Shown here: piece by piece, positions 6,428 to 31,179 of the stretch
Position numbering within the stretch: the stretch's first letter is position 1
Layout of the letters: every line of letters begins with the position of its first letter
DNA from: Chitinophaga pinensis
GTDB taxonomy: Bacteria; Bacteroidota; Bacteroidia; 2-12-FULL-35-15
DNA: 64,000 nucleotides
Assembly (NCBI GenBank): GCA_945879015.1
Contig: CAMCUO010000005.1
Span: 1,306-65,305 of the forward strand
Direction of reading: 5' to 3'
Notes under the pieces: model-generated
What the model was told of the DNA's origin: nothing
The model's input: the letters and a program-made list of their open reading frames with translations, nothing else
Database searches by the model: none
Translations under genes and position numbers: made by a program

Positions 6428-6452
6428 ATATTTTTATTAACCAAAATTGCAT

Positions 6453-6480
6453 AAAGTCCCTGTTTTTAGGGACTTTATTT
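6453..6480 (+). terminator. Rho-independent terminator
   Basis: aaagtccct-gttttt-agggacttt followed by atttg, 26 nt after the stop at 6427. Confidence 0.6.
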
Positions 6481-6537
6481 GTTAAAAAGTTGGTTGAAAC
6501 TAAAGTTTGAAAGGCCCCTTTTTTTTGTTTAAATATT

Positions 6538-6545
6538 TATATTTG
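6538..6545 (+). promoter_or_regulatory. Candidate Bacteroidota -7 promoter box TATATTTG (TAnnTTTG) upstream of dnaN
   Basis: Exact match to the TAnnTTTG consensus, 36 nt before the dnaN ATG. Confidence 0.35.
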
Positions 6546-6580
6546 TTCTATTAAATAAAAAAACTTAATTCGACCTAAAT

Positions 6581-7702: not shown

Positions 7703-7727
7703 ATTCTTGCAAAATATAATTACGAAT

Positions 7728-7757
7728 AAATGTCATCTCGAATTGAGGTGACATTTT
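7728..7757 (+). terminator. Rho-independent terminator after dnaN
   Basis: aaatgtcatctc-gaatt-gaggtgacattt followed by tttg. Confidence 0.6.
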
Positions 7758-7764
7758 TGTTATA

Positions 7765-7892
7765 GAGCGTCATTGCGAGTCACGCCCAGAGCATCGGGGC
7801 GGGATGTGGCAATCTCTCATGATGAGGAGATTCGCTACCATTGAGGAGAGATTGCCACATCTCGCGAAAATGCGGGACTCGCAATGACGCTC
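7765..7892. repeat. Family A composite palindromic element (two roughly 50-nt units in inverted orientation)
   Basis: agagcgtcattgcgagtc...ggatgtggcaatctctc // gagagattgccacatc...gactcgcaatgacgctct. The same two units recur at 23202-23325. Confidence 0.85.
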
Positions 7893-7977
7893 TAATAATA
7901 ATTCAATTTATTTTACTAAATTCGTAATATGAAATGCAAAGCATTCATGATTATCGTATAAACTAATAACCCAATAA

Positions 7978-13440: not shown

Positions 13441-13851
13441 ATGAAAAAACTTATCTATTCTCTTGTAATTACATTTTTAATGGGATTATCGGTAAACACA
13501 TTCGCTCAAAAAGCAGTTGCTACTATGGCATATTTGAATGTTAAAACTTCTAAAAAAGTTGTAGATGATAAAACTGCAATTGTTAGCTTTCAGTTAAATA
13601 ACATTTCAGATGAAGCTACATTAGCAAAATATAAGAAAGCATTTTCTTCTCAACAAAGAATTCAGTCAGTAACTACTTCTTTGCAAAAAGGAAATATGGC
13701 TTCTTTTTATATTAAAATGGACAAAACAGCAACACTAGAAACTTTACAAAGATTATTCGTTAAGGCACATGTTGCATCAGTAAATGTTGATGGCAAAGTT
13801 GCAGCTACTAAAGATCTTTCTAAATTAAAACAAAAATCTGCTAAAAAATAA
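13441..13851 (+). CDS. Hypothetical secreted protein
   Basis: 136 aa with a signal peptide (MKKLIYSLVITFLMGLSVNTFAQ). No recognisable domain. Confidence 0.5.
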   Translation: MKKLIYSLVITFLMGLSVNTFAQKAVATMAYLNVKTSKKVVDDKTAIVSFQLNNISDEATLAKYKKAFSSQQRIQSVTTSLQKGNMASFYIKMDKTATLETLQRLFVKAHVASVNVDGKVAATKDLSKLKQKSAKK

Positions 13852-16310: not shown

Positions 16311-18854
16311 ATGAGGCTAATTGACAAATATTTTCCTTTAATTTCAGTTACTTCAGAAAATCGGGAGGCGCTTTTCAATATCGATAGGCTTCGTTTTTTT
16401 AGTCTGGCTTTAGCGCAATTTATTTTAATTCTTTTTATTGTTACTCGCTATAATTTTGAAAAGTCATCAGGAATAATCGATTATGCTCCTTATGTTATTC
16501 TAGTATTTGCAATTTATAGTTTTATTGCCATCCGTTTTCGTCCAGCATTTCTATTTCTTGCGTGTGTTGCACTTGTTTATGCAGCATTTGGAATTCTGGC
16601 TGGAAGTTTTTTTATTCTTATCGGATTAGGTTTGATTTTAATTTGTCACTTACCTATAAAATATACTTATCGCTTTGTATTAATATTAGCTATTGCATTT
16701 CTTCTAGCTCTTTTTAGGACAGAATTTATTTACATTCCATGGATGACTATGACTGCTATGTACATGGCTCCATTGTTTATGTTCCGACTCATTATTTATT
16801 TGTATGAAATAAAGAACGGAGTGGTACCTGCAAATAAATGGCAAAGTATCAGTTACTTTTTTATGTTTCCAAATGTGTTCTTTCTCTTCTTTCCAATTAT
16901 CGATTACAAAACCTATATCAAAACACACCTCGATTCACCTGAAAAAGAAATATGGCAAAAAGGAATTCGATGGATGCTGCGTGGATTGATTCACATCATG
17001 TGTTATCGTTTGATCTGTTTTCATTTTTTAATCGGACCAGTTGAAGTAATTGACCTTCCAACAATGTTGCAATACATGGTGGTTAATTATTCTTTGATTA
17101 TCAGACTTTCTGGTGTATTTCATTTTATGATTGGTCTGGTTTGTATGTTTGGATTCAATCTTCCTCAAATATTTGACAATTATTTTACTGCTACCAGCTT
17201 TGTTGATTTGTGGAGAAGAATAAATATTTATTGGAGAAATTTCGTTCTAAAAATATTTTTCTACCCAACAATGTTTAGGTATAAAAAAATTCTGAAAAAG
17301 AATTTGTTGGCTTTTACCATGATGACGGTTTTCTTTATAACCTGGATAATGCATAGTTATCAGTTGTTTTGGATAACAGGTGTAGTTTCTGTTAGATCCA
17401 TAGATGTTATTTTTTGGATGGTGATTGGTGCATGTATAACTACAAATTCGGTAATTGTTGAAAAATATACTTTAGCTGAAGACAGAGTAGAAAAGCCTCA
17501 ATCGGAGTTTAAAAAGTATTTCATGAAAATAATCCGAATGATGGGAATGTTTCTTTTCATGTCAATTATGTGGTCGTTATGGAATACACGTACATTGGAA
17601 GATTGGCTTTTTATTGTTTCAAAAGGAAAACAAGTTGATTCGAAACAGTTACTTCTTATTTTTTCGGTTGTAATTGGAATTATTGGTTTAGGAATTCTTG
17701 TTCAGATGATGTTGAAAAATGTTAAGTTAAAACAGCTTATTAATAGGAAACCGCACGAAACAATTTTATTGACTTTGTCTACACTTACACTTCTAACATT
17801 ATTTTCTTTCAAAGAAATTCGTTCTAATATACCTTTATCAGTGCAACATTTGTACGATCAAATTTCTGATGGTTCAGCTAACAAACTTGAGAAAACAAAT
17901 GCTGAAGCAGGTTATTACGATAAATTGATTGAAGGCGAAGAGGGCAATACAATTGGCATAGGAGGAAGGTCATTAAAAAAGATGGTGAAGAAAAATCCTT
18001 ATACCAATGCTTATATTTATCAAAACAATATTGTAAACCGAAGAATGAAACCCAATCTCAACATTGTTGGTTCGGATCATAATTTTCAAAGTAATAGTTT
18101 TGGAATAAGAGATAAAGAGTATTCTATAAAAAAACCTCTTGGAACAAAACGTTTAGCATTGCTTGGCGGCTCTTATCAAATGGGTTCTGGTGTAAATAAC
18201 AATGAAGTTTTTGAAGCCATTGCAGAAGAAAGAATGAACAAAGAGTTGGTGGATACAAATTATAAAGCTTTTGAAATTTTCAATTTTGCTGCTGGTGGTT
18301 ATTATTTGTTGCAGCATGTTGAAATAGTTCATACATCTGTATTTCAATACGACATGGATGCCTTGGTATATTTTGCGCATACTGATGAAAGAGGCAAAGT
18401 GGTAAAAGATTTTACTACTATTATCAAGAAAGAATTGCCATTGAAATACCCATTTCTTCAGCAAATTGTCAAAGAAAGCGGCATTAAATCTTATATGAGT
18501 ATTTTACAAATAAGAGAATTACTGACTCCATATGCCGATACAATTATGAAATGGGGTTATAAGGAAATATATGAGCAATGTAAAAAGAACAATGTGGTTC
18601 CTGTTTGGGCCTATATGGAAACTACTACTGAGTTTGTTGATGATGCAGAATATAATGAGCTAAAAGCATACGCTGAATCATTAGGTTTTGTAACTTTGGA
18701 TTTACGCAATACCTATGGCAATATTGATAGAGTTGAAATTCAGATTTCGGATTTAAATACTCACCCAAATGTATTAGGACATCGATTGATTGCTGAAAGG
18801 TTTTATAAAGAGTTGAAATTAAAAAGAGATAGTATTTTTAGAATTGTTGAATAA
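16311..18854 (+). CDS. MBOAT-family membrane acyltransferase (DltB/AlgI-like) fused to a C-terminal SGNH/DltD-like domain
   Basis: 847 aa. The N-terminal roughly 470 aa are polytopic, with the MBOAT signatures DLWRRINIYWRNF and the conserved His in FFITWIMHSYQLFW. After 2-3 further TMs, a soluble domain carries LLGGSYQMGSG (block I-like Ser) and DLNTHPNVLGHRLIAERF (block V-like). Confidence 0.75.
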   Translation: MRLIDKYFPLISVTSENREALFNIDRLRFFSLALAQFILILFIVTRYNFEKSSGIIDYAPYVILVFAIYSFIAIRFRPAFLFLACVALVYAAFGILAGSFFILIGLGLILICHLPIKYTYRFVLILAIAFLLALFRTEFIYIPWMTMTAMYMAPLFMFRLIIYLYEIKNGVVPANKWQSISYFFMFPNVFFLFFPIIDYKTYIKTHLDSPEKEIWQKGIRWMLRGLIHIMCYRLICFHFLIGPVEVIDLPTMLQYMVVNYSLIIRLSGVFHFMIGLVCMFGFNLPQIFDNYFTATSFVDLWRRINIYWRNFVLKIFFYPTMFRYKKILKKNLLAFTMMTVFFITWIMHSYQLFWITGVVSVRSIDVIFWMVIGACITTNSVIVEKYTLAEDRVEKPQSEFKKYFMKIIRMMGMFLFMSIMWSLWNTRTLEDWLFIVSKGKQVDSKQLLLIFSVVIGIIGLGILVQMMLKNVKLKQLINRKPHETILLTLSTLTLLTLFSFKEIRSNIPLSVQHLYDQISDGSANKLEKTNAEAGYYDKLIEGEEGNTIGIGGRSLKKMVKKNPYTNAYIYQNNIVNRRMKPNLNIVGSDHNFQSNSFGIRDKEYSIKKPLGTKRLALLGGSYQMGSGVNNNEVFEAIAEERMNKELVDTNYKAFEIFNFAAGGYYLLQHVEIVHTSVFQYDMDALVYFAHTDERGKVVKDFTTIIKKELPLKYPFLQQIVKESGIKSYMSILQIRELLTPYADTIMKWGYKEIYEQCKKNNVVPVWAYMETTTEFVDDAEYNELKAYAESLGFVTLDLRNTYGNIDRVEIQISDLNTHPNVLGHRLIAERFYKELKLKRDSIFRIVE

Positions 18855-18888: not shown

Positions 18889-19152
18889 ATGCGTGCAGAC
18901 ATTAACGAAATAAAAGAAACAGTAAAGGCGTTCGTTAATAAACGTTTTTTAAAAAATGCTGAAGGGAAAGAATTAAACTATTCAACTCCTCTCATTTCTG
19001 GTGGTATTATTGATTCGATACTTGCTATGCAGTTGGTTGTTTTCCTAGAACAAACCTACAGGTTTGAATTTCAAGCACACGAAGTTGATAAAGATAATTT
19101 AGATAACATCGATATCATTGCAGGGTTTGTTGTAAAGAAGTTGAATGCATAA
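18889..19152 (+). CDS. Stand-alone carrier protein (PCP/DltC-like)
   Basis: 87 aa. GGIIDSILAMQLVVFLE contains the phosphopantetheine Ser. Its 3' end overlaps the adenylase start. Confidence 0.8.
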   Translation: MRADINEIKETVKAFVNKRFLKNAEGKELNYSTPLISGGIIDSILAMQLVVFLEQTYRFEFQAHEVDKDNLDNIDIIAGFVVKKLNA

Positions 19153-20599
19153 GGTAAATAAGCTATATCAGCTTCTTGAAAATTCGGCAGAACAGTTTCC
19201 GGATAATACTGCTTTAGTTTTGCAAGAAAAAAAGATTAGCTATCAACAATTAGATTCATTAGCTAATAAAATAAAACAAGCTCTTCATTCTATAAACATT
19301 TCTGAAGGAAATCGTATCGCTATTTGCTCTCCTAAATCCATTGAATTTGTCGCCTCTATTTTCGGAATATTAAAAGCTGGTGCTGCTTATGTTCCTGTTG
19401 ATTATAATTCACCTATTGAACGCAATAATTTTATTATTGAAAATTGTGAAGTAGCTGCAATTATTATTACTAAAGACTTGTTAGAAAATTTTAAAAATAA
19501 TTTTACGTTTTTCGCAGATATTGGAATTGATTTAGTTTTAGCAAAAAGCAATAAGGTAACATTAAAAAAATCTTCTGAAGATTTATCCTATATTCTATAT
19601 ACTTCAGGCTCAACGGGAAATCCAAAGGGTGTAATTTATACCAATGCTGGAGCACTTGAATTTATCAATTGGAGTTCAAATACTTTTTCTCCCACTTCGA
19701 GTGATTGTTTTTCGTCGCATGCGCCTTTTCATTTCGATCTTTCTATTTTTGATTTATATGTTTCTATAAAGCATGGAGCAACTTTGGTTCTGATAAAAGA
19801 AGAAGTGGCGAAACAACCTATGCTATTGGCTCAATTAATTTCAGAACAAAAAATTAGTATTTGGTATTCTACTCCTTCAATTCTAATAATGCTTTCGGAA
19901 TATGGCAAAATGGAAAAGTATAAGTATGATAGTTTGAGATTGATATTATTTGCTGGTGAAGTTTTCCCAATTGTCAAATTAAATACATTAAAGAAAAAAG
20001 TTAAAACATCGGTTTTTTATAATCTTTATGGACCAACAGAAACAAATGTTTGTACGTATTATCAATTGCCTGAAAATATTGAAACAAATATTCCGATTGG
20101 AAAAGTATGCGAACATTATCAAGCCTGTGTTGTTGGTGATGAGCTTTTAATTAGCGGAAAAGGTGTGATGTTGGGTTATTGGAATGTTCCTGAAAAAGAT
20201 AATTTTTGGAAGGACCAAGAAAATAGATTTTGGTACAAAACGGGTGATTTGGTAGATGTTGCAGAGAGTGGAGATTATATCTTTAAAGGCAGAAGAGATA
20301 GAATGGTGAAGCGCAATGGTTATAGAATAGAATTGGATGAAATAGAAACAGGATTAAGTAAACATCCCGATATTGTTATTGCGGCTGTTGTCAGTAAGAA
20401 CAATGAAGAAGAGCAAATGATTATTTCTGCCTTTGTTGTTTTAAGAAATACTGAGCAAAAATCAGTCATAAAAATGAAGGAATATTGTATGAATCACTTA
20501 CCTTCGTATATGGTTCCCAACGACTTTATTTTTGTTGAGGATTTGCCACAAACATCAAGCAATAAAGTGGATTATCAGAAATTAAAACAATTAGCCTAA
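19145..20599 (+). CDS. Stand-alone NRPS-type adenylation enzyme (DltA/PltF-like amino acid--carrier protein ligase)
   Basis: All A-domain cores are readable: LKAGAAYVPVD, LYTSGSTGNPKGV, FHFDLSIFD, NLYGPTETNV, YKTGDL, GRRDRMVKRNGYRIELDEIE, LPSYMVP, NKVDY. Confidence 0.85.
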   Translation: MHKVNKLYQLLENSAEQFPDNTALVLQEKKISYQQLDSLANKIKQALHSINISEGNRIAICSPKSIEFVASIFGILKAGAAYVPVDYNSPIERNNFIIENCEVAAIIITKDLLENFKNNFTFFADIGIDLVLAKSNKVTLKKSSEDLSYILYTSGSTGNPKGVIYTNAGALEFINWSSNTFSPTSSDCFSSHAPFHFDLSIFDLYVSIKHGATLVLIKEEVAKQPMLLAQLISEQKISIWYSTPSILIMLSEYGKMEKYKYDSLRLILFAGEVFPIVKLNTLKKKVKTSVFYNLYGPTETNVCTYYQLPENIETNIPIGKVCEHYQACVVGDELLISGKGVMLGYWNVPEKDNFWKDQENRFWYKTGDLVDVAESGDYIFKGRRDRMVKRNGYRIELDEIETGLSKHPDIVIAAVVSKNNEEEQMIISAFVVLRNTEQKSVIKMKEYCMNHLPSYMVPNDFIFVEDLPQTSSNKVDYQKLKQLA

Positions 20600-21747
20600 T
20601 GGAACTTTCCTTATCAACAGAGCAAATGCTTATCCAGGAAAACATTATTGGTTTTGCTCAAAAAGAATTGAATAATAATATTATTGAGCGCGATAAAAAC
20701 CAGCAGTTTTTACCTGAATTATGGAAAAAATGTGCGGAACAAAAACTTACTGGATTACCTGTTGAGGAAAAATTTGGTGGTGCTGGTTTAGATCCTATTT
20801 CTTCTGTTTTAGCATTGGAAGCATTGGGTTATGGCTCCGATGACGGTGGTTTGAATTTTTCTATATGTGCACATTTATTGGCTTGTGTTGTTCCTATCTG
20901 GAAATACGGAAACGAAAATCAAAAGAAAAAATACTTGCCTGATTTATGTAATGGAAAAAAAATTGCTGTAAATGCAATGACAGAAAGCGAATCGGGTTCG
21001 GATGTTTTTAATATTAAAACAACTGCTAAAAAGCAGGATAATGGATTTGTGATAAACGGAACAAAAACGTTTTGTTCAAATGGTCCAGTTGGAGATATAA
21101 TTTTAGTTTATGCGCTTACTGATGAAAGCAAAGGGTATTATGGTGGAATTACAGCTTTCATTGTAGATAAAAATGCAAAAGGATTTAAAGTCGGTCAGAA
21201 ATATGAGAAAATGGGTTTGCGCAGTTCGGGTATTTCTGAAGTAATATTTGAAAATGTTTTTGTTTCAGAAGAAGATATGGTTGGAGGATTTGGTGGTGGA
21301 GCAACGGTGTTTAATCATTCGATGGAGTGGGAGCGAACTGGTATGGCAGCTTTGCATGTTGGAACCATGCGCAAGTTGCTTGAAAAATCAATTGATTATG
21401 TTCAAACACGCAAATCAGGAAATGAAGTAATCGGTAAAAAACAAGCTATCGCTCATCGCATTGCAAATATGAAAGTTCAATTGGAAGCAGCTTCTTTGCT
21501 TACTTATAAAGCTGCATTAGGATTAGAAAAAAATAAAGAGAACATGATTCATGCAGCTTCAGCTAAACTTTTTGTGAGTGAAGCATTTGTTGCTGCTGCG
21601 ATTGATACCATGCAACTTTTTGGTGGAAATGGTTATATGACAGAATACGGTATTGAAAGAATTGTGCGAGATGCTCTTGGAAGTACTGTTTATTCTGGCA
21701 CATCCGATATTCAACGTAACATCATTTCTCGTTTGCTTGGATTGTAA
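20599..21747 (+). CDS. Acyl-CoA dehydrogenase-family flavoprotein, probably acting on a carrier-bound substrate
   Basis: 382 aa with the ACAD fold length. The C-terminal RDALGSTVYSGTSDIQR has Ser where MCAD has the catalytic Glu, and a Glu is present in SMEWER (IVD-like position). Start shares nt 20599 with the adenylase stop. Confidence 0.8.
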   Translation: MELSLSTEQMLIQENIIGFAQKELNNNIIERDKNQQFLPELWKKCAEQKLTGLPVEEKFGGAGLDPISSVLALEALGYGSDDGGLNFSICAHLLACVVPIWKYGNENQKKKYLPDLCNGKKIAVNAMTESESGSDVFNIKTTAKKQDNGFVINGTKTFCSNGPVGDIILVYALTDESKGYYGGITAFIVDKNAKGFKVGQKYEKMGLRSSGISEVIFENVFVSEEDMVGGFGGGATVFNHSMEWERTGMAALHVGTMRKLLEKSIDYVQTRKSGNEVIGKKQAIAHRIANMKVQLEAASLLTYKAALGLEKNKENMIHAASAKLFVSEAFVAAAIDTMQLFGGNGYMTEYGIERIVRDALGSTVYSGTSDIQRNIISRLLGL

Positions 21748-21790: not shown

Positions 21791-23179
21791 ATGAAACTAT
21801 ACGATGTCATCATTATTGGCGGGGGGCCAACAGGTTCAACTGCTGCGACACTTTTAGCTCAAAAAGGGTTAAGTGTTTTGTTGTTAGAAAAAGAATCCTT
21901 CCCAAGAGAACATGTTGGTGAATCATTGATTCCGATTTCTTATGATCAATTGAATAAGTTGGGATTGGTTGAAGAAATGAAAAAAATTTCTAGTCGTAAA
22001 CCTGGAGTTAGTTTTGATGCAAATGATGGTGTGAACCGATCTTTATGGTGTTTTAAAAGTGTTATTAAAGATGAATCATATTTAGCTTTTCATGTTATCC
22101 GTTCGGCATTTGATAAGCTTTTGTTGGATAATAGTAAAAAAGTGGGAGCTGAAGTGAGAGAGCAATACATGGTGAAAAATGTAATTCTTGATAGAGCAGA
22201 TAAAATAGTAGAAGTGCATGCAACAAATGCAGAAGGCAAAGAAGAAAAATTTGAATCCAAATTTATTGTTGACGCAAGTGGACTAAGTACTTTTCTAGGA
22301 AGAAAATTGGGAGTTAAAAAAGCATATGCGGGTTTAGATAGAGTGGCTACTTGGTCGCACTGGACAAACACCGAATTTGATACAAATTTAAAAGAAGGCG
22401 TTATTAAAATTGTTTATTTGGGTGGAGAGAAAAAAGGATGGATATGGGTTATTCCTGTGAGCAAAGAGCATTTGAGCATTGGTGTGGTTGTGAATAACAG
22501 TCATGTGAAAGAAAAGAAAAAGCAATTTCAAGATTCAGAAGATTGGAAAAAAGATTATTATTTGCAGGAACTACAAGAATGTTATTTGTATAAAACGGTA
22601 TTGAAAAACGCTAAGATGGAGCATAAAGTTGCCATGGCTGGTGACTACTCTTATTACTGCGAAAAAAAGTATGGTGAAAATTATGCTTTAGTTGGAGATG
22701 CTGGTGCATTTTTAGATCCTATTTTTTCAAGCGGAATTTTTGTTGGAATGAAGAGTGCTGAATTGGTAGCGGATGGTATTGAAGCGAACCTGAAAGGAAA
22801 AGGGAATGCTGAAATGGACAAAGCTTATGTTAATATCAATGGTGCTGTCAACTTACTTGAAAAATTTATTCGCTTGTTTTATACTCCTGAAGCACTTGAT
22901 TTTTCTAAGATTGGAACTCCAGAAGGACTTTTAATGTTTAAAAAATACGAACAAACATATTCCGTTTTCCATTACTTATTAGCGGGTGATTTTTTCAATA
23001 ATTATGAAAAGTACAGTGAATTTATTGATACCATACGTGATGAGAAGACTATGGCCAAATTCGAAAATTTAATTGATCACGCGCACAGCGCCTTACCTAA
23101 AAGTTGCGGAGAAGATTTTGAAGAAATGTATGGTGAAATGACGCATAAAATTGAGTTTGATCATAAGGCGTTTGAGTAA
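21791..23179 (+). CDS. FAD-dependent halogenase-like oxidoreductase
   Basis: Start taken at MKLYDVIIIGGGPTGS (GxGxxG). Also carries FPREHVGESLIP, GWIWVIP (WxWxIP) and GDAGAFLDPIFSSG. The ORF-track start at 21653 overlaps the ACAD gene and is rejected. Confidence 0.7.
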   Translation: MKLYDVIIIGGGPTGSTAATLLAQKGLSVLLLEKESFPREHVGESLIPISYDQLNKLGLVEEMKKISSRKPGVSFDANDGVNRSLWCFKSVIKDESYLAFHVIRSAFDKLLLDNSKKVGAEVREQYMVKNVILDRADKIVEVHATNAEGKEEKFESKFIVDASGLSTFLGRKLGVKKAYAGLDRVATWSHWTNTEFDTNLKEGVIKIVYLGGEKKGWIWVIPVSKEHLSIGVVVNNSHVKEKKKQFQDSEDWKKDYYLQELQECYLYKTVLKNAKMEHKVAMAGDYSYYCEKKYGENYALVGDAGAFLDPIFSSGIFVGMKSAELVADGIEANLKGKGNAEMDKAYVNINGAVNLLEKFIRLFYTPEALDFSKIGTPEGLLMFKKYEQTYSVFHYLLAGDFFNNYEKYSEFIDTIRDEKTMAKFENLIDHAHSALPKSCGEDFEEMYGEMTHKIEFDHKAFE

Positions 23180-23349: not shown

Positions 23350-24063
23350 TCAAAAAAACCAAGCACTAACATTCATCACAATCTTCCTTCCCCAAGAAGG
23401 AACATGTTTTAAAAAATAAAAATTCTGAAATTTTAATTGCCACCAAAGTGTTGCATTTACTTTAGCACAAATTTGTTTTTTGTCATTTTCAAATTCTTCA
23501 CGTAAAATATCAATAATCAAAATCCACCGTTCATTTTCTGTTTTGTTCCATACTTCATGTTCGTATGCATCACAGAAGGCAAAGAGTTTTCCATTTTTCC
23601 ATGAAATTTGCTCATTTCCAACTCTCATTCCAATTTCCGGTAAGCTATTTTTGCAGTTTAAAGTAAAGTGACATCGATACATCACATTGCTATCACCATG
23701 ATGTGGTTTTATGGAAGTATTTGCATTTAAAATGGAAAACGAAGCATGTGTCATTGCTGGAATGCTTTCGATTATTCTTGTCGTCTCCGGACATTTTTCA
23801 CAATTTTCTTTTTTCTTTTTGCTCCAAACATACAATGGAAAAATAGTCCAGTTCTCTGCTTTGCTGGCAAGTGATTTATTCATGTAAGGAATAATATTTT
23901 TATCCTTTGATTCAACAAGTTTGGTGAATTCTTTTAAAATTAAATCGTAATTGTCTTCAAAAAGAGCCACCCATTTTTTGTCATGGATATCAAAAAAATT
24001 AGGCTCTGGGCCTTTGTAAGCGCTATTCTCTGCAAACGAATACCATTTCTTTGAATTTCCCAT
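23350..24063 (-). CDS. Aspartyl/asparaginyl beta-hydroxylase (AspH/LpxO) family Fe(II)/2OG dioxygenase, paralog 1
   Basis: KPHHGDSNVMYRCHFTL and FCDAYEHEVWN. Confidence 0.75.
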   Translation of the reverse strand: MGNSKKWYSFAENSAYKGPEPNFFDIHDKKWVALFEDNYDLILKEFTKLVESKDKNIIPYMNKSLASKAENWTIFPLYVWSKKKKENCEKCPETTRIIESIPAMTHASFSILNANTSIKPHHGDSNVMYRCHFTLNCKNSLPEIGMRVGNEQISWKNGKLFAFCDAYEHEVWNKTENERWILIIDILREEFENDKKQICAKVNATLWWQLKFQNFYFLKHVPSWGRKIVMNVSAWFF

Positions 24064-24806
24064 TAGTAAACTTTAAATAGATTAACACTTACTATAGCCA
24101 GTCGTGTAAATGGATGTAAACATTTTGCTAAAAACTTAATTGTTCTAGCAGATAATTTTTTAAGAAAAGTATATTTCTGCCATCTCTTTTGTAAAAAAAG
24201 CGAAGTCATTACTGTTGCGCAAATTTTTTCTTTTTCATTTTTAAATTCATCACGCACAACATCCACCACAAAAATAAAACGATCTTTCTCCGAATTATTA
24301 TACGCTTCATGTTGATAGGCATCCATAAACATCAACCATTTCCCATTTTTCCATGGACGAACTTCCTCTTTAACTTTAAAGGCACATTCTGGAAGTCCAG
24401 CCGGAATTTCCAGTCCTAAATGACATCTATAAATAGTATTTGTATCTCCGCAATGTGGATGAATTTTACTTTTTGCTTCTAATAAATTAAAAGAGGAAGA
24501 AGTAATTTCTGGATATTTTTGAATAATGGAATAAGTTATTGGAAAATATTTCTGATTTTTAAACTGTTGAATTCCCCATGTTCTCAGTGGAATTGTTTTC
24601 CAGCTATTTTCACGCGAAACCATTGATTTTATAAAATAACCAATGAGGTTGTCGCTTTTAAGATATTCTTTGAGTTCTTTATAAATGGCTTCGTAATTTT
24701 CTTCAAACTCTTTTGTCCAGCGAAATTCTTCTGGTTTAGTAAAAGGAGCTTCCGTTCCATGATATTCGTCATTTACGTTATATATGTTGTACCAAGCCTT
24801 TTGCAT
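24063..24806 (-). CDS. AspH/LpxO-family dioxygenase, paralog 2
   Basis: HPHCGDTNTIYRCHLGLEIP and FMDAYQHEAYN. Its stop shares nt 24063 with the paralog 1 start. Confidence 0.75.
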   Translation of the reverse strand: MQKAWYNIYNVNDEYHGTEAPFTKPEEFRWTKEFEENYEAIYKELKEYLKSDNLIGYFIKSMVSRENSWKTIPLRTWGIQQFKNQKYFPITYSIIQKYPEITSSSFNLLEAKSKIHPHCGDTNTIYRCHLGLEIPAGLPECAFKVKEEVRPWKNGKWLMFMDAYQHEAYNNSEKDRFIFVVDVVRDEFKNEKEKICATVMTSLFLQKRWQKYTFLKKLSARTIKFLAKCLHPFTRLAIVSVNLFKVY

Positions 24807-24850
24807 CCACTCTTTATTTATTATATTTGTTTTAGTAAAAACTCTAGCAA

Positions 24851-25537
24851 ATGTCTGAATTCGAATTTACAAATAAAAATCCTAAGTTCTTTTATGATTC
24901 TGCTCAGTTTCCTTTTTTGAAGCCATTGCTTGATAATGTTGGGGTTATTCGAAAAGAGTTGCAAGATATTATTGCTTCAGGAAAGGAAAATCAATGGATG
25001 AATACGTTTCCACATTATGTAAAATCTGACGAGCACAAAGCTTGGAAGGTATTTTCATTTTTGTTCTTTAATATGAAGCTTCCCAACAACGCAAAATTAT
25101 GTCCGAAAACGGCTGAACTCATTTATTCTATTACAGAGATTCTTTCTTGTGATTATTCTTATATGAATCCAGGAACTCATGTGCTGCCTCACAAAGGTTA
25201 TTCACGAATGGTTTTACGTTGTCACATTGCTTTGATTGTTCCAGATGAGGAACTTTGTGCTTTACGTGTTGGAAATGAAATTAAACATTGGAAAGAAGGC
25301 GAACTTATAATTTTTGATGATTCATTTGAACATGAAGCATGGAATAGATCCGACAAAAGAAGAGTTGTTTTAATGTTTGATATTCCAAATCCCCTTTGGG
25401 GATATACTGCTCATGAAATTTCAAAATATAAAATTGATAAAATTGATGATCCTTTTCTTTTATCGATGGCTCCCAAAGATGAATGGATAAAAGCGTTTGA
25501 AAAAGGAATTTTTCCTTTGGAGAGTTTTAAAGATTAA
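24851..25537 (+). CDS. AspH/LpxO-family dioxygenase, paralog 3
   Basis: LPHKGYSRMVLRCHIALIVP and FDDSFEHEAWN. It is divergent from paralog 2 across a 44-bp spacer containing TATATTTG (24821-24828). Confidence 0.75.
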   Translation: MSEFEFTNKNPKFFYDSAQFPFLKPLLDNVGVIRKELQDIIASGKENQWMNTFPHYVKSDEHKAWKVFSFLFFNMKLPNNAKLCPKTAELIYSITEILSCDYSYMNPGTHVLPHKGYSRMVLRCHIALIVPDEELCALRVGNEIKHWKEGELIIFDDSFEHEAWNRSDKRRVVLMFDIPNPLWGYTAHEISKYKIDKIDDPFLLSMAPKDEWIKAFEKGIFPLESFKD

Positions 25538-25602: not shown

Positions 25603-26526
25603 TTATTTCTTCTTCACAAAAACTTTCTTCACCAAACCAACCGCTTTCTCAACAACTAAACCTACAATAATTCCAGCAAGGACACAGGATAGTGCTTTTA
25701 TAAACCAGGCCAAAGCAGACATGTTAGCCAAAGTGTGTTCGAGATCGTGAATTAAATTGGCAGAAAATTCAAAGCCGTGAGCAATGATTTCTGCACCCAC
25801 CCAAAGCATGGCTGCGGTACCCACATAACTCAAAATTTTTAGGAAATGCGGCATGAACCTGACAAGACCAAGTCCGAATTTTTGCAGGACAGGATGAAAT
25901 TTATCCTTGGCTAAGTGAAGTCCTATGTCGTCTGCTTTAACAATCAATCCAACAAATCCGTAGACTGCAATAGTAATAAAAACACCAACAGCCAGCATCA
26001 CCAAAATCTGCTTCATCATTGGCTGGTCGGTGACATAACTATAAGCAATGGCAATAATTTCTGCGGAGAGAATAATGTCAGTGCGAACCGCACCTGTAAT
26101 CCTTTCTTTTTCCAATTCATCTGGCGTGATGACTTTTACTTCATCCATTGTTAGAGGCAGATCAGGATGTTTGCTAAACATTGAATGCAACTTTTCGTAC
26201 CCTTCGAAACATAAATAAGCTCCACCTAACATTAAAATTGGTGTGATTGCCCAAGGAGCTAAGTACCCGAGCAACAAAGCTGCAGGAGTTAAAATAAGAA
26301 GTTTATTTATGAGAGATCGTTTGGCAATCCTGTAAATGATAGTTAGTTCACGTGATGGATCGAGTCCAACAACGTACTTTGGCGTAACGGCTGTATCGTC
26401 AATGACAATGCCCGAAACCTTCCCGCTAGTTTTGATTACCTGTGCAGGTACATCACTCAAGTTGGCTGCAGTTGTTTTTACTAAAGCTGAAATATCATCT
26501 AAAAGTGCAAAAAAACCCGAAGCCAT
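25603..26526 (-). CDS. DUF808 (YedI-like) inner-membrane protein
   Basis: 307 aa, polytopic, with N-terminus MASGFFALLDDISALVK typical of the family (recalled, not searched). Confidence 0.55.
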   Translation of the reverse strand: MASGFFALLDDISALVKTTAANLSDVPAQVIKTSGKVSGIVIDDTAVTPKYVVGLDPSRELTIIYRIAKRSLINKLLILTPAALLLGYLAPWAITPILMLGGAYLCFEGYEKLHSMFSKHPDLPLTMDEVKVITPDELEKERITGAVRTDIILSAEIIAIAYSYVTDQPMMKQILVMLAVGVFITIAVYGFVGLIVKADDIGLHLAKDKFHPVLQKFGLGLVRFMPHFLKILSYVGTAAMLWVGAEIIAHGFEFSANLIHDLEHTLANMSALAWFIKALSCVLAGIIVGLVVEKAVGLVKKVFVKKK

Positions 26527-26584: not shown

Positions 26585-27196
26585 TTAGAGCAAAGCATTT
26601 ATCGCCTCCATATTCTCATCACAAACTTCACCGCTAAATTTTAATTCCGCATTTTGATCGCTCAAAATTGCAGCAGCTTTATTTAGTTTTGCACCAATTG
26701 TTTTGTAGTCATCCACGTGCAATTCGTATAATTGATTGTCCACATGCTCTTGATCTGACAGTAATTTGTAGCCAAGTAACTTGTTGTAATGAATGGCTCT
26801 ATCATTGTCGCTCAATATTCTGATACGAGAAATTTTGCTGACATTTAATTTTAAAAACATAAAATTCAAAAGACACAATGTTGCAAAAACGGCTGCAAAG
26901 GAGCTGATGTAGTCTTTGTCACTAATAAAAATTCCTCCTTCGCCAAATCCTAAGCCTACATCATAATTTTTTGCATTGATGAGTCCAACTTGTTTGCCTT
27001 CAAATTCAATAATAAAATAATAATTGTTTCTGTTGTTTACGGATTTGAACCAAATTTTTTGAGCTTCAGGTGTAATGAAATTACGGTATTCCATGTAATT
27101 AGCAATATCACTTTGGTTTCTCCAATTACGAACCATCTCAATATCTTTTTCTTGCACTCTTACAAGCCGAACGCCATATTGTTCAAGAACTAACAT
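26585..27196 (-). CDS. GNAT-family N-acetyl/acyltransferase (PseH-like size)
   Basis: 203 aa with an N-terminal RLVRVQEKDIEMVRNWRN typical of sugar-N-acetyltransferase GNATs. Start overlaps the GT2 stop. Confidence 0.6.
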   Translation of the reverse strand: MLVLEQYGVRLVRVQEKDIEMVRNWRNQSDIANYMEYRNFITPEAQKIWFKSVNNRNNYYFIIEFEGKQVGLINAKNYDVGLGFGEGGIFISDKDYISSFAAVFATLCLLNFMFLKLNVSKISRIRILSDNDRAIHYNKLLGYKLLSDQEHVDNQLYELHVDDYKTIGAKLNKAAAILSDQNAELKFSGEVCDENMEAINALL

Positions 27197-28107
27197 ATGA
27201 TTTCGTCTTCGTTATAGGAAGGCGCATTGTTCAAAGCTTTTAACATCTGACTTATATATTGTGCGACAATTCCAATGCAGAAAATAATTATACCTGTAGA
27301 AAAAAGAATACTTACAATCAAAGAAGTATAACCTTCCACATCAATTTTTAAGTAAAACTTTTTAATGATGTAAAAAATTCCAATAATGAAATTGATAGTA
27401 GCTAAACTAAATCCAATATAGGTTACCAATTTTAATGGTAGAGTAGATGAAAACATGATGATGGTAGAAGTCATCTTAAACAATCCTGCTACTTTGTAAC
27501 GTTGCTTATGTATGTAATCAGGATTTGCATTTACATCTACAAAGGCTAATTTTTTTGTGTACCATAAACACAATTCATCAATAAAAACAAATTGTTTGTG
27601 ATTGTGTACCAACTTATCAGTCAGTGATTTTTTTAATAATCTAAAACTGCTTCCTTTTCCTTTTTGTGGGCCTTCCAGCTTTGCTAGTATTTTATATGCT
27701 CCAGAAAAAATTCCTCTAAAAAAAGGTTGATTTTGTTTTGGATACAATCCATAAACCAGATCAGCATTTGTATTTTTTTGATTATCGATTAGCTTTTGAA
27801 TTTCTGAAGGGTGAACTTCTAAATCATCATCAATGGTAATAACAAAATCTCCTTTCGCATGTTTGAAGCCACAAACAGTAGCTCCGTGCTGACCGAAATT
27901 TTTACTTAAGCGAATAATGGTTGTGTTGGATGAACTTGCTTTTATTTTTTTTAATACTTCCCAGCTATTGTCGGTACTACAATCATCCACAAAAATAATT
28001 TCGTAGGAATATTTGTTTTCAAAAAATGAAACAATGCTTTGGTGCACCTTCTCAAGTGCATTTTCAGAACCATAAACTGGAATAACTATGCTATAGTTTG
28101 TGCTCAT
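27190..28107 (-). CDS. Family 2 glycosyltransferase, polyprenyl-phosphate sugar transferase type (ArnC/GtrB-like)
   Basis: IVIPVYGSE...IIFVDDCSTDNS, a DxD in TIDDDLEVH, and two C-terminal TM helices. Confidence 0.75.
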   Translation of the reverse strand: MSTNYSIVIPVYGSENALEKVHQSIVSFFENKYSYEIIFVDDCSTDNSWEVLKKIKASSSNTTIIRLSKNFGQHGATVCGFKHAKGDFVITIDDDLEVHPSEIQKLIDNQKNTNADLVYGLYPKQNQPFFRGIFSGAYKILAKLEGPQKGKGSSFRLLKKSLTDKLVHNHKQFVFIDELCLWYTKKLAFVDVNANPDYIHKQRYKVAGLFKMTSTIIMFSSTLPLKLVTYIGFSLATINFIIGIFYIIKKFYLKIDVEGYTSLIVSILFSTGIIIFCIGIVAQYISQMLKALNNAPSYNEDEIIC

Positions 28108-28847
28108 ATTTTACTATTTAAAAGTAATCCACCATCCATTTTTATAACTGTTCCAGTAATTCTTTTTGATGCGGCACTTAATAAAAACGCAGCAGTATTT
28201 GCAACATCAATTGGTTCACTTATTCCAAGTGGGTAACGACTTTCAATTTCTGCAAATTCTTCTTTTGAATAAATTTGCTCTGCTTGTTCCAAAATTTTTG
28301 TCCGAACCAGACCAGGAGCAATGGTGTTTACTCGTATTTTTTTAGAAGCTGTTTCCAAAGCCAATCCTAAAGCAAAAGACTCTAATGCAGCTTTTGATGC
28401 AGTATAAAGCGAACCTCCCGTGTATGGATGATTTGCAGAAATGGATGAAATGAAAACAACTGATGCTTCGTTATTTAATTTTTTTGCAGATAATAATCCA
28501 CTACTCAGCAATACAGCCGATGAAAAATTTATTTTAAAAAGTTCATCAATGTGTCTTGATTTTAAAAACTTTATTGGAAGTGGATTGATAATTCCAGCAC
28601 AATGAACGAAACCATCAATAGCAGGTATTTTAGAAATCAAATAATTAATTTCCTCTTCGTTTGACAAATCAGCAATAAAAAAGCCTGCTTTATTTTTTAA
28701 TAATGCTTTTGTTTTATTTAATTCATCAGCATTGCGACCAGTGATAATGATATTAGCACCCAAAGAATCACACAATTGCGCAGTTGCTCTTCCTATTCCA
28801 GAAGTAGCACCAGTCACCAAAATTGTTTTATTCTCAAGCTCTGTCAT
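28104..28847 (-). CDS. Short-chain dehydrogenase/reductase (FabG-like ketoreductase)
   Basis: VTGATSGIGRATA and YTASKAAL (YxxxK). Confidence 0.8.
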   Translation of the reverse strand: MTELENKTILVTGATSGIGRATAQLCDSLGANIIITGRNADELNKTKALLKNKAGFFIADLSNEEEINYLISKIPAIDGFVHCAGIINPLPIKFLKSRHIDELFKINFSSAVLLSSGLLSAKKLNNEASVVFISSISANHPYTGGSLYTASKAALESFALGLALETASKKIRVNTIAPGLVRTKILEQAEQIYSKEEFAEIESRYPLGISEPIDVANTAAFLLSAASKRITGTVIKMDGGLLLNSKI

Positions 28848-29892
28848 ATTCTAAAAGTTTTGTATAAACATTTTCGGTTTCTAAAATAACACTTCCCCAG
28901 GAATATCCAACTCCGAAACCACTCAATAACAAAGATAATTTTTTTGTTCGTAATGCTTCTTTCATTTTGTAGCACATGGTTAATGGAATAGAAGCGGAGC
29001 TAGTGTTCCCAAAAACATCTATAGAATAAGGCACTTTTTCAAGATCTATTTTTAATTTTTTTCTCACACTTTCGTTGATGAGCTTGTTGGCTTGATGCAT
29101 AACGAAGTAATCTGTATTCTCTTTTGATTTATTACTTTTTTCATAAAGTGTAGTAATATTTGAAGCCGCTTCTTTCAATGCAAAATTAAAAACATCCATT
29201 CCATTTAAAATCAAATGCTTTTTTGCTCTACTAATTCCTGGTTCAATTTCTACTAAATCTTCCAATGTTTTATCAAACGGTGTTCTGCAACTTCCATGTT
29301 CAATTATGATTGCATTTTTTCCGGAGCCATCGCTTTGTAAATTAAAATGCATTTCATTTTTAGTTTGTGAATGCTCTATCAATGTTGCGGTTCCTGCATC
29401 TCCAAAAAGTGGATAAGTGCTTTTATCGGTATATGTTGTAGATGTAGATGACTTATCTCCAACTATCAATAAGCCTTTTTTTAATTGTCCGCTTTGCATT
29501 AAGTTGGTGATTACCGACAATCCATAAACATATCCAGAACAACCTAAGCTGATATCAAATGCGATACAATCTTTTTTTAATCCTAAACGGTTTTGTAATA
29601 AAATGGAAGTCGCTGGTAAAATATAATCGGGTGACTGAGAAACAAAAATCAGGACATCAATTTCTTCAGCACAATTATATTTATCTAATAAATGTTTAGC
29701 TGCTGTAAAACATAAATCGGAGCAAGCAACATCTTTAGCGGCAACTCTTCTTTCTTTTATTCCAGTAGTTTTTGCAAATAATTCTCTTTCCTCAACTGAA
29801 ATATGATTGTAATCGGCAGTTTTTTCTATGTGAGTTGGCACACAGCTGGAGATTGCAATAATATTCGTTTTAGTAGTAGATAGATAGGCCAC
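28834..29892 (-). CDS. KAS III (FabH)-like ketosynthase, copy 2
   Basis: Cys-His-Asn triad contexts: SLGCSGYVYG, MHQAN, GNTSSASIP. Confidence 0.8.
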   Translation of the reverse strand: MAYLSTTKTNIIAISSCVPTHIEKTADYNHISVEERELFAKTTGIKERRVAAKDVACSDLCFTAAKHLLDKYNCAEEIDVLIFVSQSPDYILPATSILLQNRLGLKKDCIAFDISLGCSGYVYGLSVITNLMQSGQLKKGLLIVGDKSSTSTTYTDKSTYPLFGDAGTATLIEHSQTKNEMHFNLQSDGSGKNAIIIEHGSCRTPFDKTLEDLVEIEPGISRAKKHLILNGMDVFNFALKEAASNITTLYEKSNKSKENTDYFVMHQANKLINESVRKKLKIDLEKVPYSIDVFGNTSSASIPLTMCYKMKEALRTKKLSLLLSGFGVGYSWGSVILETENVYTKLLEYDRA

Positions 29893-30129
29893 TTATTTTA
29901 ATTTTTCGATAGTAATATTATAAAGATCTTGGATTGTTTGTGCCGATTTTAAATCAGCGCCATTTAATAATGCATTAAAATTCGCATCAATGTATGCAAT
30001 GATAATTAAGGCATGCATACTGCTCCAACCTTTTATACTTCTAAAGTTTGTAGCGGAGCTAAGAGTCCCAGGTTCTAAATCTTCAAATTCAACTTCTAAA
30101 CCTTTCGTAAATTCTTCTATGCTATTCAT
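29893..30129 (-). CDS. Acyl carrier protein
   Basis: 78 aa. KGWSSMHALIIIAYID has the Ser attachment context. It abuts the downstream KASIII with no gap. Confidence 0.7.
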   Translation of the reverse strand: MNSIEEFTKGLEVEFEDLEPGTLSSATNFRSIKGWSSMHALIIIAYIDANFNALLNGADLKSAQTIQDLYNITIEKLK

Positions 30130-30165
30130 AAATGTAAATATATTAAAATATACAATTCAAGATGA

Positions 30166-31179
30166 CTATAGCTCAATAATGGTTGCACCCCAAGACAAAC
30201 CGACTCCAAATCCTGCGAGTAATATTTTTTGTCCTGGTTTTGCTTTTCCTGATTTAATGGCTTCACTTAATGTAATGGGGATGCTTGCAGCAACTGTGTT
30301 TCCAACACCTGCCATGTAATTAAAAACTTTTTCCTCCGGAATTTTCATTTTTGTTCGTATGGAATTAATCAAAAATAAATTCGCTTGATGAAAAATAAAA
30401 AGATCAACGTCTTCGATATTTAATTTTTCTTTCGCCAATAAATCTTTAATCATTGCTGGAACAGTTTTTAATCCAAAATGAAAAACTCCAGCACCGTCCA
30501 TGTGTAAATTAGCATCGGTAGTCACATTTCCGTGTTCATTTTCTATTTCAATAAAAGAATTTTTTGAAATTGGATTTCTTGCACCACCATCTCTGATGAT
30601 AATTTTTTCTGCCATTTTTCCATCTGTTCCAAAAACGAATGAACTAATGTTAGCATTTTTTTTACCAGACGAAATGAGCGTTGCAGCTGCACCATCACCA
30701 AAAACAAATTTTGAACTTCTATCTTTTTTATGAATATTTTTTGTGAGTGTTGAAGAAGTAATTAGCAAAACATTTTTCAATCCCAAAGACTCAATCATTC
30801 CTTTTGCCATCCCTAATCCATATACAAATCCGCTACAACCTAAACTGTAATCCATTGCTCCAGCATTTATTGGAAGCCCTAATTTTGCTTGTATGATAGA
30901 GGCAGAGGCAGGAAACATGTAATCAAACTCCAAAGCACAAAAAAGTAAAAAATCAATTTCTTCAGGTTTAACTTTGTGTTCTTTGAAAAGTGCTAATGCT
31001 GCTTTAACAGCAAGATCAGAAGCTGTTTCATTTTTAGCTACTATATGCCTTTCAACAACTCCAATTCTTGCATAGTTTTCTTTTTGAGAAACAGTTGCAG
31101 GAAAAGCTTTGAAAAAATCTGTATTACTATAGATTTTTTCGGGAAGATAATAACTGATAGCTTTTATGAATGCCGACAT
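30166..31179 (-). CDS. KAS III (FabH)-like ketosynthase, copy 1
   Basis: SLGCSGFVYG, FHQAN, GNTVAASIP. Confidence 0.8.
   Translation of the reverse strand: MSAFIKAISYYLPEKIYSNTDFFKAFPATVSQKENYARIGVVERHIVAKNETASDLAVKAALALFKEHKVKPEEIDFLLFCALEFDYMFPASASIIQAKLGLPINAGAMDYSLGCSGFVYGLGMAKGMIESLGLKNVLLITSSTLTKNIHKKDRSSKFVFGDGAAATLISSGKKNANISSFVFGTDGKMAEKIIIRDGGARNPISKNSFIEIENEHGNVTTDANLHMDGAGVFHFGLKTVPAMIKDLLAKEKLNIEDVDLFIFHQANLFLINSIRTKMKIPEEKVFNYMAGVGNTVAASIPITLSEAIKSGKAKPGQKILLAGFGVGLSWGATIIEL

Follow-up and report, generated by a model that had tools for sequence, protein, structure and literature searches.

A predicted prolyl-carrier-protein dehydrogenase and its gene cassette beside a fused MBOAT-SGNH membrane protein in metagenomic DNA of the Bacteroidota

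Which substrate is oxidised by the acyl-CoA dehydrogenase (ACAD)-like enzyme encoded in a metagenomic contig of the Bacteroidota, and what becomes of its product? The DNA analysed here, hereafter the window, is a stretch of 64,000 nucleotides of contig CAMCUO010000005.1 (GenBank assembly GCA_945879015.1, Chitinophaga pinensis), and it is identical to the ENA metagenome contig ERZ27280328 k141_2655788 (89 kb). The gene in question spans positions 20599 to 21747 of the window, and source databases label its homologues 'acyl-CoA dehydrogenase family protein'. An earlier note on this DNA had placed the catalytic base of the enzyme at the position used by isovaleryl-CoA dehydrogenase (IVD), not at that of medium-chain acyl-CoA dehydrogenase (MCAD), and had suggested a carrier-tethered aminoacyl thioester as the substrate. 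Our comparisons indicate that the product of this gene is very probably a flavin adenine dinucleotide (FAD)-dependent L-prolyl-[carrier protein] dehydrogenase of the PigA/RedW/PltE/Bmp3/AnaB family. The gene and its two marker residues are located as follows.

20599-21747, forward strand: predicted L-prolyl-[carrier protein] dehydrogenase of the ACAD fold, 382 residues, ATG start
21331-21333, forward strand: codon of the predicted catalytic base, Glu245, equivalent to Glu244 of AnaB and PigA and to Glu254 of IVD
21694-21696, forward strand: codon of Ser366, aligned with Glu376, the base of MCAD

All three ACAD domains were recognised in the open reading frame by Pfam (PF02771, PF02770 and PF00441). 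Glu245 belongs to the peptide SMEWERTGM (21319-21345), in which Glu243 is encoded at 21325-21327, and Ser366 belongs to the peptide TVYSGTS (21685-21705). The human IVD and MCAD sequences used here match PDB entries 1ivh_A and 1ege_A identically from end to end; the sequences of AnaB, Bmp3, PigA and Bacillus subtilis MmgC were taken from the alignments of the PDB search, and the proteins were aligned with MAFFT. Glu245 shares a column with IVD Glu254, PigA Glu244, a Glu of both AnaB and Bmp3, and Thr255 of MCAD. The column of Ser366 holds Glu376 in MCAD, Ala375 in IVD, Ser365 in PigA and a Ser in AnaB and Bmp3. Both placements agree with the earlier note. Its comparison with the C-terminal segment of MCAD was right about the Ser366 column and calls for one small correction in the residues quoted: the form ending in EGTAQIQR is that of the pig, and human MCAD reads EGTSQIQR. 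The MCAD variant T255E/E376G (PDB 1egd), the classical proof that the base can stand in either of these two columns, is found among the Foldseek matches of our dehydrogenase model. Asp253 of MCAD, which we take to be a CoA-adenine-binding residue, falls in the column of Glu243, so that, for the one column placed in this alignment, the acidic position is not lost.

Conservation of the two residues extends well beyond the window. Trp244, Glu245, Arg246, Tyr365, Ser366, Gly367 and Thr368 are invariant among 38 database homologues that share 57-93% identity with the query. A census of the residue pair was then made in 87 sequences, comprising 80 genome-derived homologues, six reference proteins and the query itself. 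The Glu/Ser pair was found in 64 of the 87, all of them within a clade of 66 members that holds the query, AnaB, PigA and Bmp3; the remaining two members of this clade carry Glu/Ala. Sequences outside the clade are either IVD-like, with Glu in the first column and Gly/Ala with GxGT in the second, or MCAD-like, with no Glu in the first column and Glu in the second. By the measure of these alignments, the Glu/Ser pattern of the dehydrogenase is not a chance coincidence, because it is invariant in the 38 homologues and kept across 64 of the 66 members of the clade. It is a published hallmark of the family and no new catalytic arrangement. Previous work established this Glu as the essential catalytic base of AnaB and Bmp3, and proposed that it deprotonates the C2-H of the prolyl thioester, after which a hydride passes to FAD (PMC11177257). 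In PDB entry 6af6, titled 'PigA with FAD and proline', PigA carries Ala at the residue aligned to Glu245, which bears out the statement in the earlier note that the base of the prolyl-carrier-protein oxidases lies near residue 244.

Among NCBIfam models, the dehydrogenase scores highest with PigA (418 bits), followed by RedW (381 bits), and the best acyl-CoA enzyme reaches 289 bits; NCBIfam holds no curated model for the wider prolyl-dehydrogenase family. The sequence search of the PDB returned AnaB (4irn, 3.4e-95), Bmp3 (6cxt_B, 8e-87) and PigA (5zw0, 1e-85) at the top, with IVD at about 1e-62 and MCAD at about 1e-53; in bits, AnaB reached 322 versus 212 for IVD. These best matches are in line with the carrier-tethered aminoacyl (prolyl) thioester envisaged earlier as the substrate. 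The identity of entry 6cxt as Bmp3 was taken from the literature (PMC11177257). An AlphaFold2 model of the dehydrogenase, built on the 38 homologues, reached a pLDDT of 88 and a pTM of 0.89. Its best Foldseek matches were again AnaB, PigA and Bmp3 (4irn, 5zw0 and 6cxt; TM 0.91-0.95), with TM values of 0.94-0.95 to 4irn and 5zw0 and of about 0.9 to IVD. Glu245, the only active-site Glu and the only candidate base, lies in this model near the beginning of the long helix (residues 234-270) with which the C-terminal domain opens. This is the same helix position as IVD Glu254, and the place where AnaB, PigA, Bmp3 and IVD have their proven bases. Phylogeny points the same way. In a neighbour-joining tree (Kimura distance, 100 bootstraps), the query groups with AnaB, PigA and Bmp3 in a clade that leaves out IVD and MmgC in 100 of 100 bootstraps, so that a grouping with IVD, which the earlier note had named as one of two outcomes that would overturn its reading, was not obtained; the other, a Glu245 outside the active site, is at odds with the helix position of this residue. 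The Kimura distances of the query to Bmp3 (1.11) and to AnaB (1.12) are nearly equal, and the cyanobacterial AnaB sequences cluster together, apart from the nearest neighbours of the query.

The genes that surround the dehydrogenase tell more about its substrate. Four further genes lie on the same strand; those for the carrier protein, the adenylation enzyme and the halogenase form, with the dehydrogenase gene, what we call the cassette.

16311-18854, forward strand: membrane protein of 847 residues with an N-terminal half resembling the membrane-bound O-acyltransferase (MBOAT) DltB and an SGNH C-terminal half; first gene of the co-directional run
18889-19152, forward strand: stand-alone carrier protein of 87 residues with the serine motif GGIIDS, its position kept in relatives
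19145-20599, forward strand: stand-alone adenylation enzyme of 484 residues, predicted to be specific for L-proline (AMP-binding and AMP-binding_C domains)
21791-23179, forward strand: flavin-dependent halogenase of the carrier-substrate type, 462 residues (Trp_halogenase and FAD_binding_3 domains)

The carrier, adenylation and dehydrogenase genes are translationally coupled. The end of the carrier gene overlaps the start of the adenylation gene by 8 nt, and the stop codon of the adenylation gene overlaps the ATG of the dehydrogenase gene by 1 nt (TAATG). The best single-domain PDB match of the adenylation enzyme is PltF, an L-proline--[prolyl-carrier protein] ligase (6o6e, 273 bits); the LgrA entries that rank higher combine two domains, each with 190-209 bits. 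The ten specificity positions were read from an alignment with the PheA part of GrsA, which, as a check, gave back its canonical code DAWTIAAICK. The code of the window enzyme, DLFYLALVCK, is identical to that of AnaC in the anatoxin loci of Cuspidothrix and Microcoleus (L044, L045, L048 and L049; such numbers, from L001 to L083, denote the loci fetched from related genomes). It is also the commonest code in our collection, carried by 38 of the 62 adenylation enzymes encoded next to homologues of the dehydrogenase. In the anatoxin pathway, AnaC activates proline and AnaB oxidises the prolyl-acyl carrier protein (PMC6053186). The adenylation enzyme of the window is accordingly predicted, from its code, to be specific for L-proline.

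Some relatives of the dehydrogenase depart from the window in one or the other of these markers. The two clade members with Ala at the MCAD-376 column, L033 and L037, both come from Herpetosiphonaceae (Chloroflexota) and read STIEWERGF and TLYAGTS; the partner adenylation domain of L037 carries the classical proline code of nonribosomal peptide synthetases, DVQFMAHVAK. The actinomycete homologues (L053, L055-L057, L059 and L060, from Streptomyces and Actinokineospora) keep the Glu/Ser pair within the motif HVM(K/R)WEIL, without the Arg after the Glu. At these actinomycete loci, the best nearby matches to the adenylation domain carry other codes (DLLQLTVDSK and similar) at 23-28% identity, and they may not be the cognate enzymes.

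The halogenase gene begins 44 nt past the stop codon of the dehydrogenase gene. A start at TTG 21653, overlapping the dehydrogenase gene, was considered and set aside for ATG 21791, which lies ahead of the GGGPTG motif and agrees with the start in the public gene call. The PDB matches of the halogenase are 8zop, CndH (3e1t), Mpy16 (5buk), CmlS, Bmp2 (5bva) and PltA (5dbj). Its motifs comprise GGGPTG (GxGxxG), GWIWVIP (WxWxIP) and a Lys aligned to Lys76 of CndH, which is presumably the catalytic Lys. Mpy16, Bmp2 and PltA halogenate aromatic pyrrolyl-S-carrier proteins. A halogenase gene is co-located with the dehydrogenase gene in L001-L006, L008, L026, L027, L029, L034, L040 and L082. Because a halogenase of the pyrrolyl-S-carrier type adjoins the dehydrogenase, a four-electron oxidation to pyrrole is favoured over the two-electron outcome known from AnaB. 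As a side observation, a gene for a membrane acyltransferase of the AT3 family (PF01757) lies between the dehydrogenase and halogenase genes in L005 (11439-12566, reverse strand).

The first gene of the run, which lies 35 nt directly upstream of the carrier gene and is co-directional with it, opens the second part of our question. The 847-residue protein gave no significant match in Pfam, NCBIfam or PDB sequence searches, and it was identified by structure prediction and Foldseek only (AlphaFold2 pLDDT 84, pTM 0.78). The best Foldseek matches of its polytopic N-terminal half are DltB (6bug_C, E 3.6e-7; 8jem), followed by HHAT and PORCN, and those of its C-terminal half are SGNH/GDSL proteins, among them PatB, an O-acetyltransferase of peptidoglycan. 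Its homologues number more than 1,700, mostly in Bacteroidota, and go under names such as 'DltB (MBOAT superfamily)' or 'AlgI' at JGI and, for some, 'SGNH/GDSL hydrolase' at NCBI. Family-wide, His348 in the membrane domain and Ser621 and His818 in SGNH blocks I and V are invariant. Tyr535 and Tyr536 are also invariant; they form part of a GYYxxL(I/L) motif in a linker, modelled with low confidence, that joins the SGNH domain to the last membrane helix. According to a recent mechanistic paper, bacterial MBOAT/SGNH systems consist of separate protein pairs, in which the acyl group passes via the Tyr of an FXYXXF motif to the Ser of the SGNH protein; a carrier-protein thioester, that of DltC, serves as the donor in the Dlt pathway only, and the other systems use acyl-CoA (PMC12148441).

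Two members of this family from other genomes deserve mention. In L083 (706-7878), the gene of a second MBOAT-SGNH paralogue of 858 residues precedes those of a carrier protein, two AMP-binding enzymes and an Rv2949c-like protein of the chorismate-pyruvate-lyase type. To judge from this gene set, the MBOAT-SGNH family would be able to use further aromatic acids borne on a carrier protein, and members such as the L083 copy may use other carrier-borne acids. In L081 (Rhodocaloribacter litoris), a distant member is accompanied by Wzy, glycosyltransferases, sulfotransferases and heparinase II/III-like genes, and by no carrier or adenylation genes.

Beyond these five genes, the window holds a larger set of genes that recurs in related genomes. 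Its members are listed below.

13441-13851, forward strand: conserved protein of 136 residues at the left edge of the cluster, without a family match; homologues in L002, L004, L005 and L082
13872-14999, forward strand: sulfotransferase (PF13469, PF00685), kept in L002, L004, L005 and L082
15053-16096, reverse strand: sulfotransferase (PF13469, PF00685), kept in relatives
23350-24063, reverse strand: LpxO/OlsC-type Fe/2-oxoglutarate hydroxylase, first of three (PF05118; OlsC model 104 bits, under the cut-off)
24063-24806, reverse strand: LpxO/OlsC-type hydroxylase, second of three (PF05118; OlsC model 111 bits, under the cut-off)
24851-25537, forward strand: LpxO/OlsC-type hydroxylase, third of three (PF05118; OlsC model 133 bits, under the cut-off)
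26585-27196, reverse strand: GNAT protein (Acetyltransf_3), candidate PseH-like amino-sugar N-acyltransferase
27190-28107, reverse strand: family 2 glycosyltransferase (GT2) resembling ArnC/PgfS, of the polyprenyl-phosphate sugar transferase type
28104-28847, reverse strand: short-chain dehydrogenase/reductase (SDR) resembling 3-oxoacyl-acyl carrier protein (ACP) reductase
28834-29892, reverse strand: FabH-like 3-oxoacyl-ACP synthase III (KAS III), second copy
29893-30129, reverse strand: probable second acyl carrier protein of 78 residues, assigned by position only, without a family match; kept between the KAS III genes in L001-L006 and L082
30166-31179, reverse strand: FabH-like KAS III, first copy, at the right edge of the conserved cluster

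The run from 26585 to 31179 resembles a route to an amino sugar that is N-acylated with a hydroxyacyl group and carried on polyprenyl phosphate. Amino sugars bearing 3,5-dihydroxyhexanoyl groups are known in Flavobacterium O-antigens. The three tandem hydroxylase genes at 23350-25537 are paralogues and are kept in related clusters. The DUF808 gene at 25603-26526 was considered as a member and rejected, since it is not kept in related clusters.

The closest genomes are metagenome-assembled genomes (MAGs) of uncultured Bacteroidota/Bacteroidia, whose dehydrogenases share 71-93% identity with the query. The entire block from 13.4 to 31.2 kb is kept in L002, L004, L005 and L082; in L001, L003 and L006, loci that stop short of the left edge, those parts of it that could be retrieved are kept as well. 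In more distant Bacteroidota (L008, L026-L029 and L034), what is kept is a five-gene core of MBOAT-SGNH protein, carrier protein, adenylation enzyme, dehydrogenase and halogenase, in this order, except that L028 gave no halogenase match. The set of KAS III, ACP and SDR genes is absent from these six loci, and their MBOAT-SGNH proteins are 27-34% identical to that of the window. The distant cores adjoin genes for glycosyltransferases of families GT2, GT4 and GT8, for a sulfotransferase-like protein, for a methyltransferase and for ABC exporters; GT2, GT4, GT8 and ABC-2/ABC exporter neighbours were found in L008 and L027. In L008, from a Saprospiraceae MAG, an ABC-2 permease/ATPase pair (6298-7986, reverse strand) sits between the MBOAT-SGNH and carrier genes, an arrangement that ties the cassette to ABC-transporter-dependent glycan export. 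Altogether, the surroundings of the cassette point to the modification of a cell-envelope glycoconjugate.

Based on these observations, we tentatively propose that the cassette might serve as the acyl-donor arm of an undescribed, carrier-dependent MBOAT-SGNH fusion acyltransferase, which would esterify a sulfated or hydroxylated surface glycan or glycolipid with a (halo)pyrrole-2-carbonyl group. To judge from the gene context and from characterised relatives, the adenylation enzyme would load L-proline onto the 87-residue carrier protein. Glu245 of the dehydrogenase would then take the C2 proton of the prolyl thioester while FAD takes the hydride, as in characterised relatives, and a second round of oxidation would probably yield the pyrrolyl-2-carboxyl-S-carrier protein. 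A halogenase of the PltA/Bmp2 type would halogenate the pyrrole while it is still tethered. In the fourth and least certain step, the DltB-like MBOAT-SGNH protein would take the (halo)pyrrole-2-carbonyl group from the carrier at the cytoplasmic face and pass it outward, perhaps via Tyr535/Tyr536 and then Ser621, to a glycan or glycolipid at the cell surface. This acceptor would be assembled and modified by the products of the flanking glycosyltransferase, N-acyl-sugar, hydroxylase and sulfotransferase genes.

Several observations weigh against parts of this proposal. As regards the dehydrogenase, its NCBIfam scores miss the equivalog cut-offs, with 418 versus 500 for PigA (NF053553) and 381 versus 650 for RedW (NF045652); because the scores lie under these cut-offs, the enzyme is, on sequence grounds, a member of the family and not an orthologue of PigA or RedW. 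Its identity to the characterised members is 37-39% in fold-search alignments and rises to 46-48% only versus uncharacterised genome relatives, and its close relatives all come from MAGs of uncultured Bacteroidota. The geometry attributed to Glu245 is read from alignment to solved homologues. Moreover, the sequence would fit a four-electron oxidation to pyrrole and a two-electron oxidation to an AnaB-type pyrroline alike. The carrier protein matches the PP-binding family weakly (E 0.009). In the 847-residue protein, the acyl-shuttle motif known from the literature, FXYXXF, does not occur as such, the motif here being GYYxxL, and the acid position of the SGNH domain is Asn in the clade of the window (Asp in distant members). 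Finally, the fourth step is speculative, being drawn from gene order, and the KAS III and ACP genes offer an alternative fate for the pyrrolyl thioester.

This last point leads to the main alternative for the final step, which we regard as less likely than not: the (halo)pyrrolyl thioester would go into a small, diffusible molecule, and the MBOAT-SGNH protein would serve an unrelated acylation. Hydrolysis or decarboxylation might set free a halopyrrole, in the way known from the bmp pathway, or the pyrrolyl group might be transferred or extended by the KAS III and ACP proteins in a manner like CloN2/CloN1 shuttling. It is true that the two KAS III genes and the small ACP-like gene are kept in L001-L006 and L082, and that, as a matter of general knowledge, pyrrolyl-S-carrier cassettes mostly feed secondary metabolites. 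The distant MBOAT-SGNH member of L081 also does without carrier or adenylation genes. However, the distant Bacteroidota drop the KAS III, ACP and SDR genes and yet keep the five-gene core (L028 without a halogenase match), and no thioesterase, polyketide synthase (PKS) or condensation domain was found in the cluster. The MBOAT-SGNH gene is co-directional with the carrier gene and lies only 35 nt upstream of it; in L083, a member of the same family stands beside a different set of carrier and adenylating enzymes. All four observations speak against the small-molecule reading.

An AnaB-type, two-electron oxidase, with a route ending at the pyrroline-5-carboxyl-S-carrier protein, is improbable. 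The co-conserved halogenase next to the dehydrogenase is of the PltA/Bmp2/Mpy16 type, and such enzymes act on the aromatic pyrrolyl-S-carrier substrate; the cluster also holds no PKS of the AnaE/F/G type. AnaB does rank as the best PDB match by both sequence and fold, and its motifs HSMEWER and YSGTS are identical to those of the query. Its product is the 1-pyrroline-5-carboxyl-ACP (PMC6053186). The query, however, is equally near to Bmp3 (1.11) and to AnaB (1.12), and the cyanobacterial AnaB group is separate from it.

Still less probable is a carrier-tethered substrate other than proline. The specificity code is a prediction, and the best full-length NCBIfam models of the adenylation enzyme are of the DltA type, under their cut-off; yet the code is identical to that of the proline-activating AnaC and common to the 38 of 62 enzymes counted above, and the best single-domain structural relative is PltF. 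Least credible of all is a catabolic IVD-like or short/branched-chain acyl-CoA dehydrogenase placed in the cluster by chance, which would account for the shared Glu254-type base position, the full ACAD fold (TM about 0.9 to IVD) and the database name of the homologues, and which is contradicted by the separation from IVD in 100 of 100 bootstraps, by 212 bits for IVD versus 322 for AnaB, by the Gly/Ala with GxGT, not YSGT, that IVD-like sequences among the fetched loci show at the MCAD-376 column, by the translational coupling of the gene to a proline-type adenylation enzyme and a carrier protein, and by a neighbourhood of biosynthetic and envelope genes without any leucine-catabolic gene near the dehydrogenase.

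With the prolyl-carrier-protein dehydrogenase as the preferred assignment, the locus can be compared with characterised systems. Its dehydrogenase resembles AnaB (4irn) most, as the best match in sequence and fold, with identical HSMEWER and YSGTS motifs and the same column for the catalytic Glu, and in both cases a stand-alone proline adenylation enzyme with the identical code DLFYLALVCK is adjacent. Unlike AnaB, to which it is 39% identical (fold-search alignment) and which stops at the pyrroline-5-carboxyl-ACP and feeds a PKS, the window enzyme has a halogenase and no PKS at its side. It shares with PigA, RedW, PltE and Bmp3 (5zw0, 6af6 and 6cxt) the fold, the Glu245 that corresponds to PigA Glu244, and the Ser at the MCAD-376 column, and in the plt and bmp clusters, as here, a carrier-substrate halogenase adjoins the dehydrogenase. 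The pathway, in contrast, is not that of a prodiginine, of pyoluteorin or of the bmp products, and the partner is an MBOAT-SGNH protein instead of a PKS, ketosynthase or thioesterase. IVD (1ivh) and the MCAD variant T255E/E376G (1egd) likewise have a Glu at the same helix position and no Glu at the MCAD-376 position. IVD, however, belongs to another clade, has Gly-Ala at 374/375 where the query has Tyr-Ser, and acts on an acyl-CoA and not on a carrier thioester.

With the Dlt system (DltA, DltC, DltB, DltX and DltD), which D-alanylates teichoic acids, the window locus shares genes for an adenylation enzyme and a small carrier next to that of an MBOAT, here nearest to DltB in solved fold, and an SGNH domain that would presumably act as the last transferase. 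Unlike in Dlt, the MBOAT and SGNH modules of the window are fused, DltX and the FXYXXF motif are missing and GYYxxL is present instead. The predicted acyl group is an oxidised, halogenated proline versus D-alanine, and the host is a Gram-negative member of the Bacteroidota without teichoic acids. Because the acyl group and the host differ, the architecture is fused and FXYXXF is missing, the operon resembles Dlt in logic at most and is not a Dlt system. PatA/PatB and AlgI/AlgJ/AlgX offer a further parallel, as they share the two-module MBOAT and SGNH logic for extracytoplasmic polymers, and the C-terminal domain of the window protein has PatB among its structural matches. Unlike the window protein, they are separate proteins and use acetyl-CoA, without a carrier protein (PMC12148441).

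We found no literature that pairs an MBOAT with a pyrrole and a halogenase, and, among the papers listed, none that links a pyrrole-2-carboxyl group to a polysaccharide, absence from the searched collection being no proof of novelty in either case. The genomic setting suggests an undescribed end point of thiotemplated halopyrrole biosynthesis. Were this true, the thiotemplated formation of pyrroles would acquire an end point of a new kind, the chemistry by which bacteria acylate their surface polymers would extend to halogenated heteroaromatic acyl groups, and a Dlt-like logic would operate in a Gram-negative bacterium with an acyl group typical of natural products. The finding on the dehydrogenase alone amounts to a correct annotation of a gene that databases name 'acyl-CoA dehydrogenase family protein', and the Glu245/Ser366 pattern provides a simple diagnostic for the prolyl-carrier-protein dehydrogenase family. 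Since the dehydrogenase alone is already explained, the wider value lies in a fused MBOAT-SGNH protein that is kept, together with its own cassette, in the envelope-glycan loci of uncultured Bacteroidota.

Two minor points concern the window and the carrier protein. Scans of the window for tRNA genes and Rfam families returned one tRNA-Arg only, far from the locus. The NCBIfam models of stand-alone carrier proteins give 75 bits with the 87-residue protein, under the cut-off, and the matches to AsbD and DltC are weaker. The best of these models would make it the ACP of the ornithine-lipid OlsH/OlsI pathway; this identity was rejected, as 75 bits fall below the cut-off of 130 and the cluster contains no GH3-like OlsH. 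The match of the carrier to the planctomycete OlsH/OlsI ACP, together with the OlsC-like hydroxylases, makes a lipid a possible acceptor in place of a glycan.

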